Part shown: one piece after another, positions 14,976 to 20,557 of the stretch
Numbering within the stretch: the first letter of the stretch is position 1
Layout of the letters: every line of letters starts with the position of its first letter
UHGV virus genome: UHGV-0304743
Origin: a virus
DNA: 31,594 bases
Direction: 5' to 3' (one strand)
Program-made: the position numbers and the translations under genes
The notes under the pieces: generated by a model
Told to the model about the DNA's origin: nothing
Seen by the model: the letters and a program-made list of their open reading frames with translations, nothing else
Database searches by the model: none

Positions 14976-15052
14976 CTCTGTTTAGCTCAGCTTGGTAGAG
15001 CGTTCCGTTTGGGGCGGTAAGGTCGGAGGTTCAAGTCCTCCAACAGAGACCA
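14976..15052 (+). tRNA. tRNA-Pro (anticodon TGG)
   Basis: Cloverleaf by eye: acceptor CTCTGTT/AACAGAG, D-arm GCTCAGCTTGGTAGAGC, anticodon loop TTTGGGG, T-arm GGAGGTTCAAGTCCTCC, CCA encoded. Confidence 0.75.
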
Positions 15053-15059
15053 AATTAAT

Positions 15060-15137
15060 GTTCCAGTAGACAAAATGGTAAAGTCACCACTCTTTCAAAG
15101 TGGATATCTGAGGGTTCAAATCCCTTCTGGAACGCCA
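15060..15137 (+). tRNA. tRNA-Glu (anticodon TTC)
   Basis: Acceptor GTTCCAG/CTGGAAC, anticodon stem CCACT/AGTGG with loop CTTTCAA, T-loop TTCAAAT, CCA encoded. Confidence 0.7.
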
Positions 15138-15144
15138 GTTTTGA

Positions 15145-15217
15145 CAGAAGACCAATTACAGCAAACTTAATCTTATTCATCTGAAGGTAAATCGGACAAA
15201 GAAGAGATTTGGTCTGG
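15145..15217 (+). ncRNA. Spacer element of the CAGAAGACC-N4-ACAGCAA ... GGTCTGG family (unit A)
   Basis: Conserved 5' motif at 15145-15164 and 3' GGTCTGG at 15211-15217; the termini can pair (AGACC/GGTCT). Confidence 0.35.
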
Positions 15218-15228
15218 TCATTAAGAAT

Positions 15229-15305
15229 TGCGGGTATAGAGAAAGGGCGTCTCACATGTCTCATTAGCATGGTATCGGCAGGTTCGACTCCTGCACCCGC
15301 CTCCA
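15229..15305 (+). tRNA. tRNA-Met or Ile2 (anticodon CAT), slightly atypical
   Basis: T-arm GCAGGTTCGACTCCTGC, anticodon stem CATGT/GCATG with loop CTCATTA, CCA encoded; acceptor pairs 6 bp with a 1:72 T.C mismatch and one extra nt before the D-stem. Confidence 0.55.
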
Positions 15306-15311
15306 ATTTTG

Positions 15312-15372
15312 CAGAAGACCGTTTACAGCAACAAAATACTTTTTGCGGATAAAAGAAAAAAACACGGTCTGG
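15312..15372 (+). ncRNA. Spacer element of the CAGAAGACC ... GGTCTGG family (unit B)
   Basis: CAGAAGACCGTTTACAGCAA at 15312-15331 and GGTCTGG at 15366-15372. Confidence 0.35.
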
Positions 15373-15383
15373 CAATGTATTAA

Positions 15384-15460
15384 GGTTAGGAAGCACATAA
15401 GGTATGTGCGGTCGCCTGTTAAGCGAATGGCACAGGGTTCGAATCCCTGACTAACCGCCA
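15384..15460 (+). tRNA. tRNA-Asn (anticodon GTT)
   Basis: Acceptor GGTTAGG/ACTAACC, anticodon loop CTGTTAA, T-arm CAGGGTTCGAATCCCTG, CCA encoded. Confidence 0.7.
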
Positions 15461-15468
15461 AATTAAAT

Positions 15469-15556
15469 GTGTCGTTATCCCGTAGATGGTAGCGGTGGGG
15501 ACTGTAAATCCCTTGTCATTGAGACTCGGTAGGTTCGACTCCTACACGGCACACCA
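15469..15556 (+). tRNA. tRNA-Tyr (anticodon GTA), long variable arm
   Basis: 88 nt; acceptor GTGTCGT/ACGGCAC, anticodon stem GGGGA/TCCCT with loop CTGTAAA, T-arm GTAGGTTCGACTCCTAC, CCA encoded. Confidence 0.7.
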
Positions 15557-15561
15557 ATAAA

Positions 15562-15638
15562 GGCTATGTAGTTTAACTGGAGAAAATACTCCCCTGTCAC
15601 GGGAGATGATGTGAGTTCAAGTCTCATCGTAGCCGCCA
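15562..15638 (+). tRNA. tRNA-Asp (anticodon GTC)
   Basis: Acceptor GGCTATG/CGTAGCC, anticodon stem CTCCC/GGGAG with loop CTGTCAC, T-loop TTCAAGT, CCA encoded. Confidence 0.75.
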
Positions 15639-15699
15639 ATTTTGAGAGGGCTATTTAGCCCCTCCCTTAAAGAGTTCTTACGAGTATTCTTTAAAGGAG

Positions 15700-15773
15700 C
15701 AGAAGACCAAATACAGCAAGTTATTTAAAATTTCAAGCCAATTTAATTTTGAAAAATTTAAAACTTGGTCTGG
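15700..15773 (+). ncRNA. Spacer element of the CAGAAGACC ... GGTCTGG family (unit C)
   Basis: CAGAAGACCAAATACAGCAA at 15700-15719 and GGTCTGG at 15767-15773. Confidence 0.35.
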
Positions 15774-15786
15774 CTCAACAAATTTA

Positions 15787-18642: not shown

Positions 18643-19196
18643 GATATTTAAAATATGCTTCATGGGTTTTCCTAGCTTTGCTAGAACCATTAGCAGCAAC
18701 CTTAGCAGTTATCTTAGCACCTTTCGTAGTTCCATTTTACAGTGAGAAGAAAGGCCACTTACCTTTCGGATTTAGATGGATGGAGACATATGACAACCCA
18801 ATTGATGGTGACGAAGGTCATATCGAACGATGGGCTAAGATTAGAAAGATTGGTAAGCTGGGTGTCTACATGCAGAGAGTCGGATGGCTCTGGAGAAACA
18901 AAGCTTATAACTTCTCTTACCATGTATTAGGAAGAGATGTAAAAGATGTTACTAAGTGGAAAGGTAATATCAACGTAAGTTCTGACCCTGAAGATAATCA
19001 GACAGGTTATCTCCTAATGTGGAACAGTAATGCTTGGGGATTATTCGCTTTTATCCCATCAATTAAAGTCTTTGGTAAACAGTTTTACTGGAGAATTTAT
19101 ATTGGATGGAAACTAAAAAGTGTTGTCCCAGAAGAAAGAGCATTCTCAAGGGAAAGAGTTATGTTGGCATTCTTTATTCATCCACTGAGAAAGTAA
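18639..19196 (+). CDS. hypothetical membrane protein (N-terminal TM segment), embedded in the tRNA array
   Basis: ORF track; ATGA start/stop overlap with upstream ORF; hydrophobic N-terminus WVFLALLEPLAATLAVILAPFVV. Confidence 0.5.
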   Translation: MRYLKYASWVFLALLEPLAATLAVILAPFVVPFYSEKKGHLPFGFRWMETYDNPIDGDEGHIERWAKIRKIGKLGVYMQRVGWLWRNKAYNFSYHVLGRDVKDVTKWKGNINVSSDPEDNQTGYLLMWNSNAWGLFAFIPSIKVFGKQFYWRIYIGWKLKSVVPEERAFSRERVMLAFFIHPLRK

Positions 19197-19204
19197 AGAT
19201 TTAA

Positions 19205-19280
19205 AGGGGATTAGTTTACAAGGTTAAAACCTCGGTCTTTGAAATCGAAGAAGTTGGTTCAATTCCAACATCCCCCGCCA
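19205..19280 (+). tRNA. tRNA-Gln (anticodon TTG)
   Basis: Acceptor AGGGGAT/ATCCCCC (1:72 A.C mismatch), D-arm GTTTACAAGGTTAAAAC, anticodon stem TCGGT/ATCGA with loop CTTTGAA, T-arm GTTGGTTCAATTCCAAC, CCA encoded. Confidence 0.65.
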
Positions 19281-19282
19281 AT

Positions 19283-19361
19283 GCTCCATTACTCCAATTG
19301 GCAGAGAGGCCAGACTTAAAATCTGTGTTATGTATCGGTTCGAATCCGATATGGAGTACCA
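19283..19361 (+). tRNA. tRNA with anticodon TAA (Leu by anticodon) but short (7-nt) variable region
   Basis: Acceptor GCTCCAT/ATGGAGT, anticodon loop CTTAAAA on a 4-bp stem, T-arm ATCGGTTCGAATCCGAT, CCA encoded; 79 nt. Confidence 0.5.
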
Positions 19362-19366
19362 AATTT

Positions 19367-19442
19367 AGCGGTATAGCATAACTGGCAATGCAACAGTCTC
19401 TGAAGATGTCCTATTAAGGTTCAAATCCTTATGCCGCTGCCA
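19367..19442 (+). tRNA. tRNA-Gln (anticodon CTG), anticodon stem with one G.A mismatch
   Basis: Acceptor AGCGGTA/TGCCGCT, D-arm GCATAACTGGCAATGC, anticodon loop CTCTGAA, T-arm TAAGGTTCAAATCCTTA, CCA encoded. Confidence 0.55.
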
Positions 19443-19473
19443 CTTCTAAGGGTTCTTACGAGAGTCCTTAAAT

Positions 19474-19549
19474 GTGGCCTTATCATAAATGGTAATGACC
19501 CATGCTGTGAACATGGTCTATACGGGTTCAAATCCCGTAGGTCACCCCA
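19474..19549 (+). tRNA. tRNA-His (anticodon GTG)
   Basis: Acceptor GTGGCCT/AGGTCAC, discriminator C, anticodon stem CCATG/CATGG with loop CTGTGAA, T-arm ACGGGTTCAAATCCCGT, CCA encoded. Confidence 0.7.
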
Positions 19550-19554
19550 ATTTA

Positions 19555-19631
19555 TAGTCCAAGTAGCTTATATGGTTAAAGCGCGTGTCTGAAAAACATG
19601 AGAAGAGGGTTCAAATCCCACTGGACTACCA
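19555..19631 (+). tRNA. tRNA-Phe (anticodon GAA); exact acceptor register ambiguous
   Basis: D-arm GCTTATATGGTTAAAGC, anticodon stem CGTGT/ACATG with loop CTGAAAA, T-loop TTCAAAT; two alternative acceptor pairings differ by 1 nt. Confidence 0.55.
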
Positions 19632-19647
19632 ATTTCAAAGGTGCTTA

Positions 19648-20382
19648 ATGAAAGAGATGACAGAACAAGGTAAGGAGATTTTTAATCTCTTAAAAACCGG
19701 TAAAGGGTTTTCTAACCCACTTATTACTGGTGCAGCAGTTCTCGGTGGAACCGTAGCTGCTTCTACATCACTTGTAAGCTCTATTAGTTCTGTAACAGAC
19801 CCTACAATGCAGGAGAAACTTGTTGCTGCTGGACTTACAACAGTCCTTCTAAACAGCTTTACAACAAGCCTTACAAGTACTACAGCAACTACTAAGACCC
19901 TGACAGACTACGGTCAAAAATCTATTGATGAGTTTTCATCACGTATGCAGGTAGCAAAGGGATATTCCAATGTTATGGGTGCAGCAGGAGAACAAGTTGG
20001 TTGTACACCGTTCAGTGGTATTATGGGTGTTGCTACAGAATATGGTCAAAAAGCTATTGACATGATGAACAGCACACTGGATAGTGTTAATGGTGTGTTA
20101 AGTGACTTACAAGATGCTATTGATAAGGGTCTTGATACTGTTTCTGATTTAGCTAATCAGGCTGTTAGTAAGATTAATGAAGGTATTTCAAAGATTACAG
20201 CTTATGCAGATGAAGTTGTGCAGATGATTGAAGAAGAAGCTGCCCTTATTGCAGAGTACCTTAAAACGAATATCAATGGGTTCTTAGCAGGTATCTTACC
20301 AGACTGGTTTGATGATGCCTGTAAAACTGGTGTGATTGACACTATTGCAACACCAGAAATGAAGAGCGCATTACAGAAATAA
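19648..20382 (+). CDS. hypothetical Ser/Thr/Ala-rich protein embedded in the tRNA array
   Basis: ORF track, start moved to internal ATG at 19648 (RBS AAAGG) because the upstream part of the track ORF overlaps tRNA-Phe. Confidence 0.5.
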   Translation: MKEMTEQGKEIFNLLKTGKGFSNPLITGAAVLGGTVAASTSLVSSISSVTDPTMQEKLVAAGLTTVLLNSFTTSLTSTTATTKTLTDYGQKSIDEFSSRMQVAKGYSNVMGAAGEQVGCTPFSGIMGVATEYGQKAIDMMNSTLDSVNGVLSDLQDAIDKGLDTVSDLANQAVSKINEGISKITAYADEVVQMIEEEAALIAEYLKTNINGFLAGILPDWFDDACKTGVIDTIATPEMKSALQK

Positions 20383-20384
20383 AT

Positions 20385-20477
20385 GGAAGATTAACCCTAA
20401 AAGGTAAGGGAGCAGTTTGCTAAACTGCCAGTAGCTGAGAAATCGGTGTACCAGTTCAAGTCTGGTATCTTCCTCCA
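20385..20477 (+). tRNA. tRNA-Ser (anticodon GCT), long variable arm
   Basis: 93 nt; acceptor GGAAGAT/ATCTTCC, anticodon stem GCAGT/ACTGC with loop TTGCTAA, long variable arm, T-arm ACCAGTTCAAGTCTGGT, CCA encoded. Confidence 0.75.
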
Positions 20478-20481
20478 ATTT

Positions 20482-20557
20482 GAATCCGTGACAGAAATGG
20501 CTATGTACCTGTCTGCAAAACAGGTTTATAAGGGTTCGAGTCCCTTCGGATTCTCCA
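20482..20557 (+). tRNA. tRNA-Cys (anticodon GCA)
   Basis: Acceptor GAATCCG/CGGATTC, anticodon stem CCTGT/ACAGG with loop CTGCAAA, T-arm AAGGGTTCGAGTCCCTT, CCA encoded. Confidence 0.75.

Follow-up and report, generated by a model that had tools for sequence, protein, structure and literature searches.

The tRNA gene clusters of phages T4 and T5 are polycistronic, also contain small stable RNAs and genes for homing endonucleases, and favor A/U-ending codons and codons that are rare in the host, such as AGA. Among the Felix O1-like phages, published counts stand at 22 tRNAs for Felix O1, 23 for wV8, and 17 to 23 for the genus (PMC2674420, PMC8300805). Here we describe a locus at positions 14976 to 20557 of a 31,594-nt stretch of the viral genome UHGV-0304743 (the window, with 39% G+C content), in which a first-pass annotation had counted about 26 tRNA genes on the plus strand. 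Our analysis confirmed an array of 27 tRNA genes on one strand, comprising 25 canonical genes called by ARAGORN plus the structurally aberrant tRNA-Arg(UCU) and tRNA-Trp(CCA), which together cover all 20 amino acids. On the sequence evidence, we consider it likely that the locus is a Felix O1-like tRNA cluster that supplements the host pool and carries other small RNAs besides. The region had been taken for a pure tRNA array; because its tRNA transcription units also carry RNAs resembling Y RNAs and transfer-messenger RNA (tmRNA), with a gene for a Ro60-like protein adjacent, it is best read as a translation and RNA-surveillance island.

As such, the tRNA array is not new: it belongs to a phage genus that has been studied well, and the matching clusters of Felix O1 and its relatives are annotated. 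Megablast of positions 14700 to 20800 matched 315 phage records, 202 of them with at least 80% query coverage at 90 to 97% identity, and nearly all were Felix O1-like myoviruses of Escherichia, Salmonella, Shigella, and Citrobacter. More than 180 deposited phages with 96 to 97% identity to the window have annotated tRNA clusters. Positions 6600 to 31594 were likewise 96 to 97% identical to phages ASO1A, FSL SP-012, tootiki, and Felix O1 (NC_005282; 96.2% across 98% of 25 kb), so the window is part of a Felixounavirus genome. Synteny agreed with identity. The array lies, as in Felix O1, between the gene for the Ro60-like (DUF2828) protein and the terminase genes, and the tRNA order (Pro, Glu, Met, Asn, Tyr, Asp ... 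Ser, Cys) is that of the annotated clusters of Felix O1, bumzen, D4, and VpaE1. Felix O1 differs in having three HNH genes in the region against one in the window, and its record carries no annotation of the second CAU tRNA or of either Ser tRNA, all of which the window retains. Deposited relatives annotate 17 to 25 tRNAs, usually leaving out the Arg-UCU and Trp genes, and vary mainly in the inserted HNH endonuclease genes and in the number of odd tRNAs reported by each pipeline.

ARAGORN called its 25 genes exclusively on the plus strand, with the first start at 14976 and the last end at 20557, exactly the limits drawn in the first-pass annotation. The Rfam tRNA model (RF00005) at its gathering threshold gave 24 matches, of which 23 coincided with ARAGORN genes and one lay at 16624 to 16702; tRNA-Tyr and the first of two CAU tRNAs (copy 1) were found by ARAGORN alone. 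Automated annotation, at 25 and 24 genes, did not bring the number substantially down, and relaxed ARAGORN settings added one dubious call (17200 to 17287) and obvious false positives. The anticodons listed earlier sum to 27 and include all 25 of those from ARAGORN, the other two being the second Arg and Trp. The claimed coverage of all 20 amino acids is thus borne out, with Arg-UCU, Trp, and one CAU species as structurally unusual members of the set.

The array opens with tRNA-Pro(UGG) (14976 to 15052; Rfam, 57.7 bits), tRNA-Glu(UUC) (15060 to 15137), CAU copy 1 (Met or Ile2; 15229 to 15305), tRNA-Asn(GUU) (15384 to 15460), tRNA-Tyr(GUA) (15469 to 15556), which has a long variable arm and matched only the tRNA-Sec model of Rfam (29.6 bits), and tRNA-Asp(GUC) (15562 to 15638). 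These are followed by tRNA-Lys(UUU) (16068 to 16143), CAU copy 2 (Met, initiator or Ile2; 16222 to 16298; Rfam, 56.9 bits), tRNA-Ile(GAU) (16301 to 16375), and the noncanonical tRNA-Arg(UCU) (16624 to 16705) and tRNA-Trp(CCA) (17205 to 17287). Next come tRNA-Ser(UGA) (17301 to 17390), tRNA-Leu(UAG) (17644 to 17722), tRNA-Lys(CUU) (17730 to 17805), tRNA-Ala(UGC) (17812 to 17887), tRNA-Gly(UCC) (17894 to 17968), tRNA-Thr(UGU) (17976 to 18052), tRNA-Val(UAC) (18148 to 18222), tRNA-Leu(CAA) (18224 to 18301), and tRNA-Arg(ACG) (18307 to 18382). The remainder are tRNA-Gln(UUG) (19205 to 19280), tRNA-Leu(UAA) (19283 to 19361), tRNA-Gln(CUG) (19367 to 19442), tRNA-His(GUG) (19474 to 19549), tRNA-Phe(GAA) (19556 to 19631), tRNA-Ser(GCU) (20385 to 20477), and tRNA-Cys(GCA) (20482 to 20557).

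Four protein genes, also on the plus strand, are set among the tRNAs: an HNH homing-endonuclease gene (16711 to 17067), recognized from the list of open reading frames (ORFs), a Pfam match, and the records of relatives; two small genes at 18400 to 19196, encoding 80 aa with no assigned function and 185 aa with a Pfam DUF7338 match; and a 244-aa gene with a DUF7217 match (19648 to 20382). The 254-nt spacer before tRNA-Leu(UAG) (17400 to 17643) has no called gene and by eye appears to contain a long hairpin, AGAGGGCUUCUAAGG ... CUUAGAAGUUCUCU.

Codon usage was compared between 35 window ORFs (7,308 codons) and 53 genes of E. coli K-12 (13,821 codons). The phage has A or T in 68% of third positions against 46% in E. 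coli, and AGA makes up 44% of its Arg codons against 3%. The most overused codons, AGA (log2 ratio, +3.8), CUA (+2.1), ACA (+1.6), CCA (+1.6), UCA (+1.5), and UUA (+1.3), as well as GGA, each have a Watson-Crick cognate among the phage tRNAs, and in every four-codon box (Pro, Ser, Leu, Ala, Gly, Thr, and Val) a phage tRNA carries U34. Across the families with several isoacceptors, cognate codons had a mean log2 ratio of +0.75 and other codons of -0.63 (Mann-Whitney, p = 0.0018), which supports the suggestion, made with the first count, that the array compensates for a difference in codon usage from the host. The figures do not amount to evidence of independence from host tRNA pools, the other possibility raised with that count. 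The set thus appears biased toward U34 anticodons and toward isoacceptors scarce in enterobacteria (Arg-UCU, Leu-UAA, Leu-UAG, Leu-CAA, and Lys-CUU). Because of this bias, the array would supplement the host pool for the A/U-ending codons that a phage of 39% G+C uses heavily, and its tRNAs, once charged, would speed phage translation. No aminoacyl-tRNA synthetase was noticed among the 36 window ORFs of at least 90 codons, most of which were not searched for function. tRNA-Lys(CUU) is carried besides tRNA-Lys(UUU), and AAG accounts for 42% of phage Lys codons against 30%; E. coli K-12 presumably has only the UUU species of tRNA-Lys.

The three TTGACA-type promoters and the terminator that the earlier reading had proposed are present in the sequence. 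Two sigma-70 promoter-like sites precede tRNA-Pro on the plus strand, TTGACA-17-TAATAT at 14829 to 14857 and the TG-extended TTGACA-18-TAAAGT at 14920 to 14949. The third, TTGACA-17-TATAGT at 16391 to 16419, is the best in the region (11/12) and lies ahead of the tmRNA-like RNA; it is kept in relatives, and analogous promoters precede the tmRNA-like RNA in other phage families. An intrinsic-terminator-like hairpin, GACGGTCTCTGTGCCGTC followed by TTTTTT, stands at 20722 to 20745. From sigma-70-type promoters of this kind, host RNA polymerase would make a few long precursors of the cluster, and host RNase P together with 3'-end-processing enzymes would mature the tRNAs from them. The tmRNA-like RNA would form the 5' leader of the unit that begins at 16391 and be released by the RNase P cut at tRNA-Arg(UCU), while four Y-RNA-like RNAs would travel on the same transcription units as the tRNAs, as probable partners of the Ro60-like protein.

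The two sites before tRNA-Pro lie in a tandem duplication (14809 to 14835 and 14900 to 14926) with A/T-rich upstream tracts, and the stop codon of the Ro60-like gene is immediately followed by a 12-bp inverted repeat that contains the first of them. Spacers between the tRNAs repeatedly carry a small hairpin whose loop resembles GGUUCUUACGAGAGUC (15663 to 15695, 16585 to 16619, and 19446 to 19474); it is present in an Erwinia phage as well and may be a processing signal. The second copy, read from the sequence as UCUUUAAGGGCUUUCUAAGAGAGUCUUUAAAGA, separates the tmRNA-like RNA from tRNA-Arg(UCU).

Several observations weigh against codon compensation as the full account of such a cluster. The codon sample is small, and its reference is E. 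coli K-12, whereas the actual host may be either Escherichia or Salmonella. AUA is not enriched (6% versus 5%), and at least one CAU tRNA is therefore not explained by codon bias; two-codon families carry a G34 tRNA although the phage prefers the U-ending codon. Promoter-like matches in the region number 17, against 17.6 expected from shuffled sequence, so the three sites, plausible but not demonstrated, rest on position and conservation. Nor does compensation explain why the set is complete for 20 amino acids, or why Ro60-like, Y-like, and tmRNA-like elements share the locus.

An alternative that we entertain tentatively is that the full set keeps translation going when host tRNAs are destroyed by anticodon nucleases (PrrC, PARIS, retron-associated, or colicin-like toxins) or are no longer made after host shut-off, with codon matching being secondary. 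A set that spans all 20 amino acids and is not confined to rare codons would fit such a role, as would the presence of Lys-UUU, Tyr, Asp, Asn, and His tRNAs, which are known nuclease targets, together with the extra Lys-CUU. The Ro60-like protein, Y-like RNAs, and tmRNA-like RNA alongside could likewise be elements of pathways that deal with RNA damage and stalled ribosomes. Altered anticodon loops, however, are not seen: by eye, those of Lys-UUU (CUUUUAA) and Tyr (CUGUAAA) look the same as the E. coli loops, with no sign of mutations of the kind described for T5, and the codon-bias signal is real. In PMC12916289, phage tRNAs are described as able to evade tRNA-targeting defenses (van den Berg 2023, Azam 2024) and the tRNA-cleaving retron Eco2 as giving no protection against most Felixounavirus species, both in keeping with this alternative. 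Codon compensation and protection against tRNA-targeting defenses or host tRNA decay are not exclusive of each other, and supplementation of the host pool remains the reading we prefer.

The tRNA-Arg(UCU) at 16624 to 16705 (Rfam, 31.7 bits) combines an acceptor stem of 7 bp with a T arm, an encoded CCA, and an anticodon arm whose loop reads CUUCUAA, while its D arm is replaced by the 7-nt sequence UAUCUCA and its variable region of 23 nt contains a GUAA hairpin. Neither this gene nor tRNA-Trp(CCA) has a canonical D arm, with a 3- to 4-bp stem and a G18G19 loop, and both are therefore filed as noncanonical. BLAST found relatives of the Arg-UCU gene at 83 to 90% identity in T5-like Klebsiella phages, jumbo phage 121Q, and rV5-like and Mydovirus phages, labeled in databases as "tRNA-OTHER", as an unnamed tRNA, or as "tRNA-Leu", or not labeled at all; the loop CUUCUAA was identical across the five lineages found in this way. 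A pattern scan of IMG/VR, in which that loop was itself fixed, returned 41 contigs of 15 to 360 kb with 25 distinct sequences that align without gaps. In this alignment 97.1% of stem cells were paired, against 30 to 48% when the partners were slid, and 127 cells had changed on both sides, a number reached by none of 500 shuffles. The variable region CGUUAAYCGA-GUAA-nnGGAGUAU is conserved throughout the D-arm-less family, and some sister Felixounavirus contigs have a canonical tRNA-Arg(UCU) at the equivalent site. Family covariation and this canonical allele argue that 16624 to 16705 is a real, if noncanonical, tRNA-Arg(UCU). An HNH endonuclease gene follows the odd tRNA both in the window and in Klebsiella phage Riker, which suggests that the D-arm-less gene spread by homing. 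We found no evidence of an earlier description of this tRNA family.

tRNA-Trp(CCA) was recognized from identity elements (A1-U72, G73, an encoded CCA end, and the loop CUCCAAA), which resemble those of E. coli tRNA-Trp. It was missed by ARAGORN defaults and by the Rfam tRNA model, with the tRNA-Sec model giving 23 bits (E = 0.12). The anticodon stem, AACGG/CCGUU, contains a C31.A39 mismatch, and the D region is an aberrant 25 nt with an atypical stem lacking GG. In relatives, the anticodon stem changes to GUAAG/CUUAC and the T stem to AUGGG/CCUAC, both in a compensatory manner; one related record annotates a tRNA-Trp at the equivalent position, but with a sequence different from that in the window. 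Compensated stems and an invariant anticodon loop were accordingly found for both Arg-UCU and Trp-CCA. CAU copy 1 has a U1.C72 mismatch and U37 and gave no Rfam tRNA match; its T stem shows a compensatory change in one relative. Arg-UCU and Trp-CCA are thus predicted, though unproven, functional decoders on which two of the 20 amino acids depend.

Directly behind the promoter-like site at 16391 lies a tmRNA-like RNA of about 160 nt (16426 to 16584, plus strand), identified by weak Rfam tmRNA matches, conservation, and covariation. A permissive Rfam search placed the matches at 16433 to 16622, with 16.3 bits for RF00023 and 31.7 bits for RF04321 against a gathering threshold of 47. A tag frame read from the sequence and its homologs at 16469 to 16501 (GCA AAC GAC AAT GTT TTT CTG GCA GTA GCT TGA) encodes the 10 codons ANDNVFLAVA and a stop, and follows the resume context AUAAAU. 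Around it are the structural parts of a tmRNA: pseudoknot 1 before the tag, a helix-5-like hairpin at the stop codon (16487 to 16516), and pseudoknots 2 (16517 to 16549) and 3 (16550 to 16583) after it. We infer pseudoknot 1 from a local alignment with nt 67 to 137 of E. coli ssrA and from a conserved GUUUU/GAAAC pairing. Across 29 diverse aligned cores, the stop-codon hairpin and the two H-type pseudoknots were 93.2% paired, against 31 to 49% in slid controls, and 15 pairs had changed on both sides. By sequence and predicted structure, the segment corresponds to tmRNA from pseudoknot 1 to pseudoknot 3. The conserved core contains no tRNA-like domain (an acceptor with G3:U70 and CCA, a T arm, and helix 2), and for this reason we call the RNA tmRNA-like and not a tmRNA.

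The RNA is conserved in more than 700 phage records and was unannotated in every record examined. BLAST with the core of about 125 nt (71 to 81% identity) found it in Vi01-like Ackermannviridae, Klebsiella siphophages of about 48 kb, N4/G7C-like phages, Sashavirus, and Erwinia Ounavirinae, and a further search added T5-like contigs and P1; overall it ranges over Felix O1-like, P1-like, T5-like, Vi01-like, N4-like, T1-like, and other enterobacterial phages and phage-plasmids. In P1 (NC_005856, about 68890 to 69100) the core lies in the leader of the C1-controlled ban operon, between the "dicF-like region" and trnA/trnT, where the record has no feature, and its tag is ANDDLMMVAA followed by a stop. 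The core matched 329 of 5,426 complete E. coli genomes, in plasmids of about 100 to 115 kb and at chromosomal sites taken to be prophages, and was never annotated. A bacterial set with one genome per species gave four matches, three in Enterobacterales and one in a Planctomycetia metagenome-assembled genome. A scan of IMG/VR that used the tag as its anchor returned 16 different tags in at least 120 contigs. One that used the downstream pseudoknot, and so was unbiased with respect to the tag, returned 55 unique tag regions, 54 of which keep the 10-codon frame and the stop. Tag codons 1 to 3 vary at third positions only (GCA/GCU, AAC/AAU/AAA, and GAU/GAC/GAA), and the variants that change the residue are AAA (Lys, once) and GAA (Glu). 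Arrays of long hairpins flank the core in siphophage, Vi01-like, and P1 contigs; their stems are related, CACAACAGGUAAGAGCAUUG ... CAGUGCUCUUUCCGUUGUGG, their inserts vary, and some inserts contain T-arm-like pieces. These hairpins may be processing sites or additional small RNAs.

A missing tRNA-like domain was sought in several places. Neither in the window nor in Felix O1 did ARAGORN (1.2.41) call a tmRNA, and no tRNA or tRNA-like-domain match lay within 700 nt of the core in Vi01, Klebsiella P5026, or TR2. Beside the core in other lineages there were only sporadic T-arm-like pieces within the long flanking hairpins. The window copy of tRNA-Arg(UCU) has G3:U70 and A73, as in alanine-accepting RNAs, but this candidate was ruled out: G3:U70 occurs in only 7 of 25 homologs, a canonical Arg(UCU) replaces the gene in sister phages, and the gene occurs in phages independently of the tmRNA-like RNA. 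The fourth Y-RNA-like unit (U4, described below) was also considered as the domain of a two-piece RNA and rejected, its acceptor-like hairpin loop being GCCA in phage Moogle but GCAG in the window, its stem lacking G3:U70, and tRNA genes and a promoter separating it from the tag RNA. Host ssrA is not the source of the similarity, for ssrA itself was never matched by BLAST in the 5,426 E. coli genomes.

Felix O1 and Moogle have been stated to encode ssrA (PMC4319497, PMC4392139), whereas a tmRNA census of 2014 listed phage ssrA only in mycobacteriophages, phage G, and DS6A (PMC4131195). The published statement for Felix O1-like phages traces to an ARAGORN "permuted" call that joins unrelated tRNA-like pieces. 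We reproduced such a call for Moogle only; it spans 749 nt and does include the real tag region, but its tRNA-like domain is an artifact, because the 3' domain is the T arm of U4 and the 5' domain is part of tRNA-Lys.

What the tmRNA-like RNA does may be approached through four readings. It may well act on ribosome rescue as a decoy or competitor for its components, although we give this less than an even chance. That it serves as the coding partner of a tRNA-like domain provided in trans is a doubtful option, some other function seems quite unlikely, and a nonfunctional relic is very improbable because of the covariation. Energies computed with RNAduplex for pairing with host tmRNA were not consistently better than those of shuffled sequences.

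Directly upstream of the array, a gene on the plus strand (13395 to 14810) encodes a 471-aa protein whose Pfam matches are DUF2828 and DUF7788 only; TROVE was not among the matches at E <= 0.01. Searches of PDB sequences with phmmer and of NCBIfam gave nothing significant, solved Ro60 structures included, so a fold search was needed. The AlphaFold2 model, built with 35 homologs (pLDDT, 87.5; pTM, 0.86), had as its 11 best Foldseek matches in the PDB exclusively Ro60/Rsr proteins, aligned over their full length (500 to 550 columns; TM, 0.39 to 0.64; probability, 1.00) and including Ro60 of Thermus phage phiLo, Deinococcus Rsr, and Xenopus Ro60. The product is therefore predicted to have the Ro60 fold, a HEAT-repeat ring plus a von Willebrand factor A (vWA) domain, at the level of structure and not of TROVE sequence. 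The RefSeq name of the Felix O1 ortholog is "RNA-binding protein", and we found no paper linking DUF2828 proteins to Ro60.

The spacers between the first tRNAs hold four repeats of CAGAAGACCnnnUACAGCAA ... GGUCUGG, which by folding and conservation, and for U1 also by the repeats, define plus-strand Y-RNA-like units U1 to U4. On a common plan, an outer 4-bp stem is followed by a fixed AGA/G internal loop, an inner stem AGACCnn/nnGGUCU, and the single-stranded UACAGCAA. The outer stems differ from unit to unit yet stay complementary, and the stems covary among paralogs and orthologs. U1 (15142 to 15220) pairs UGAC/GUCA outside and AGACCAA/UUGGUCU inside, U2 (15309 to 15375) UUGC/GCAA and AGACCGU/ACGGUCU, and U3 (15697 to 15776) GAGC/GCUC and AGACCAA/UUGGUCU. 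U4 (15784 to 15921), of YrlA type, has a stem formed by UUAC/GUAA and AGACCGUU/AACGGUCU which, in the four-way junction given by RNAfold, encloses a V hairpin, a T arm (15841 to 15861), an acceptor-like hairpin that is compensated in Moogle, and a D-arm-like hairpin; a partial Rfam tRNA match falls inside it at 15810 to 15860. This is the order of arms that defines YrlA RNAs (PMC4201824), and with its adjacent Ro60-like gene and long terminal stem U4 has the YrlA architecture. The Rfam YrlA model (RF02553) had no match in the window at E <= 10.

Units of the same type accompany Ro60-like genes elsewhere. A viral contig of 143 kb encodes a Ro60-like protein with 52% identity, and behind its gene come a promoter, four units (7440 to 8131), and 14 tRNA genes; the stems of these units differ while UACAGCAA is the same, two have T, acceptor-like, and D arms, and one matches Rfam YrlA with 40.9 bits (E = 1.5e-7), below the gathering threshold of 69. 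An IS605 OrfB/Cas12f-like TnpB gene (11393 to 12652) lies just past the tRNA array of this contig. In Vibrio phage phi-pp2, UACAGCAA units occur within a tRNA cluster that lies 3.4 kb upstream of the Ro60-like homolog, and another is found in the 5' leader of that gene (units at 343 to 460, 2585 to 2700, and 5950 to 6000), which might indicate autoregulation. A third Ro60-like homolog had no tRNA nearby. U1 to U4 themselves probably partner the adjacent Ro60-like protein.

These neighbors raise the possibility that the tRNAs act together with the tmRNA-like RNA and with the Ro60-like protein and its Y-like RNAs as one RNA-surveillance module, for example in a remodeled tRNA quality control and ribosome rescue during infection of which the tRNA array would be one arm. 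We think this unlikely. The physical linkage is kept across the genus, Ro60-like genes adjoin tRNA arrays and UACAGCAA-type units in two of the three unrelated phages examined, the tmRNA-like RNA lies just upstream of tRNA genes in P1 too, and both ssrA and Ro60/Y RNA have been reported in mycobacteriophages and Bacillus phage G (PMC4131195, PMC12135203); yet the tmRNA-like RNA also occurs in phages without a tRNA detected within 700 nt (Vi01, Klebsiella P5026, and TR2), and one Ro60-like homolog stands apart from tRNAs. That the tRNA genes are largely dispensable cargo, of no meaningful benefit and retained through drift or because they give homing endonucleases a place to land, is hardly credible: tRNA number varies in the genus (17 to 23, PMC8300805) and HNH endonuclease genes come and go between tRNAs, but hundreds of isolates share the gene order and a conserved sequence, compensatory changes maintain stems even in the aberrant tRNAs, and the choice of anticodons is nonrandom with respect to codon usage.

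Beyond the supplementary tRNA cluster that we favor, we put it at just short of even chances that the array hides two undescribed phage RNA systems. One would be a tmRNA-derived RNA that keeps pseudoknot 1, the resume codon, the 10-codon tag, and two further pseudoknots and has lost the tRNA-like domain; the other would be a DUF2828-type Ro60 with a family of Y RNAs of its own, which carry UACAGCAA after a terminal stem and are interleaved with tRNA genes. If the former holds, viruses would have a new class of RNA for manipulating trans-translation, serving either as a rescue decoy or as a coding piece through which the phage could set the tag, and its presence in P1 and in relatives of T5, Vi01, and N4 would offer a handle on how phages affect ribosome rescue and the tagging of nascent proteins. 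The latter would extend the Ro60/Y-RNA system to common, easily manipulated coliphages. Felix O1-like phages are used in Salmonella typing and biocontrol. The D-arm-less Arg-UCU family shows that standard tools undercount phage tRNAs, which affects every comparison of codon usage or tRNA number. These three elements, rather than the array itself, are the parts worth following.

Set against described systems, the Ro60-like module shares with Ro60/Rsr and YrlA (Chen et al. 2014, PMC4201824; phiLo, PMC12135203) the Ro60 fold and the encoding of RNAs with long terminal stems next to the protein gene. It differs in that the protein matches DUF2828/DUF7788 and not TROVE, in that its Y-like units are interleaved with real tRNA genes, and in the motif after the stem, C-AGAAG-ACC...UACAGCAA, where YrlA has GNCGAAN0-1G. 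The tmRNA-like RNA is like bacterial ssrA in its resume context (AUAAAU before GCA, compared with AAUAGUC before GCA in E. coli), its tag (ANDNVFLAVA, compared with ANDENYALAA in enterobacterial tmRNA), the placement of the stop in a helix-5-like hairpin, and an H-type pseudoknot before the tag with two after it. Unlike both one-piece and permuted two-piece ssrA, its conserved core lacks an acceptor stem, T arm, D-loop analog, helix 2, and pseudoknot 4. tRNAs without a D arm are known from mitochondria, as in metazoan mt-tRNA-Ser(AGY), with which the Arg-UCU gene shares normal acceptor, anticodon, and T arms, its D arm being replaced by a 7-nt connector; it differs in being phage-borne, in having a conserved variable region of 23 nt whose hairpin is capped by a GNRA loop, and in always being UCU. 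The array as a whole is like the T4 and T5 clusters in being polycistronic, in containing small RNAs and homing-endonuclease genes, and in its bias toward A/U-ending and host-rare codons; unlike them, it belongs to another lineage with another gene order, covers all 20 amino acids, and has a Ro60-like gene adjacent.

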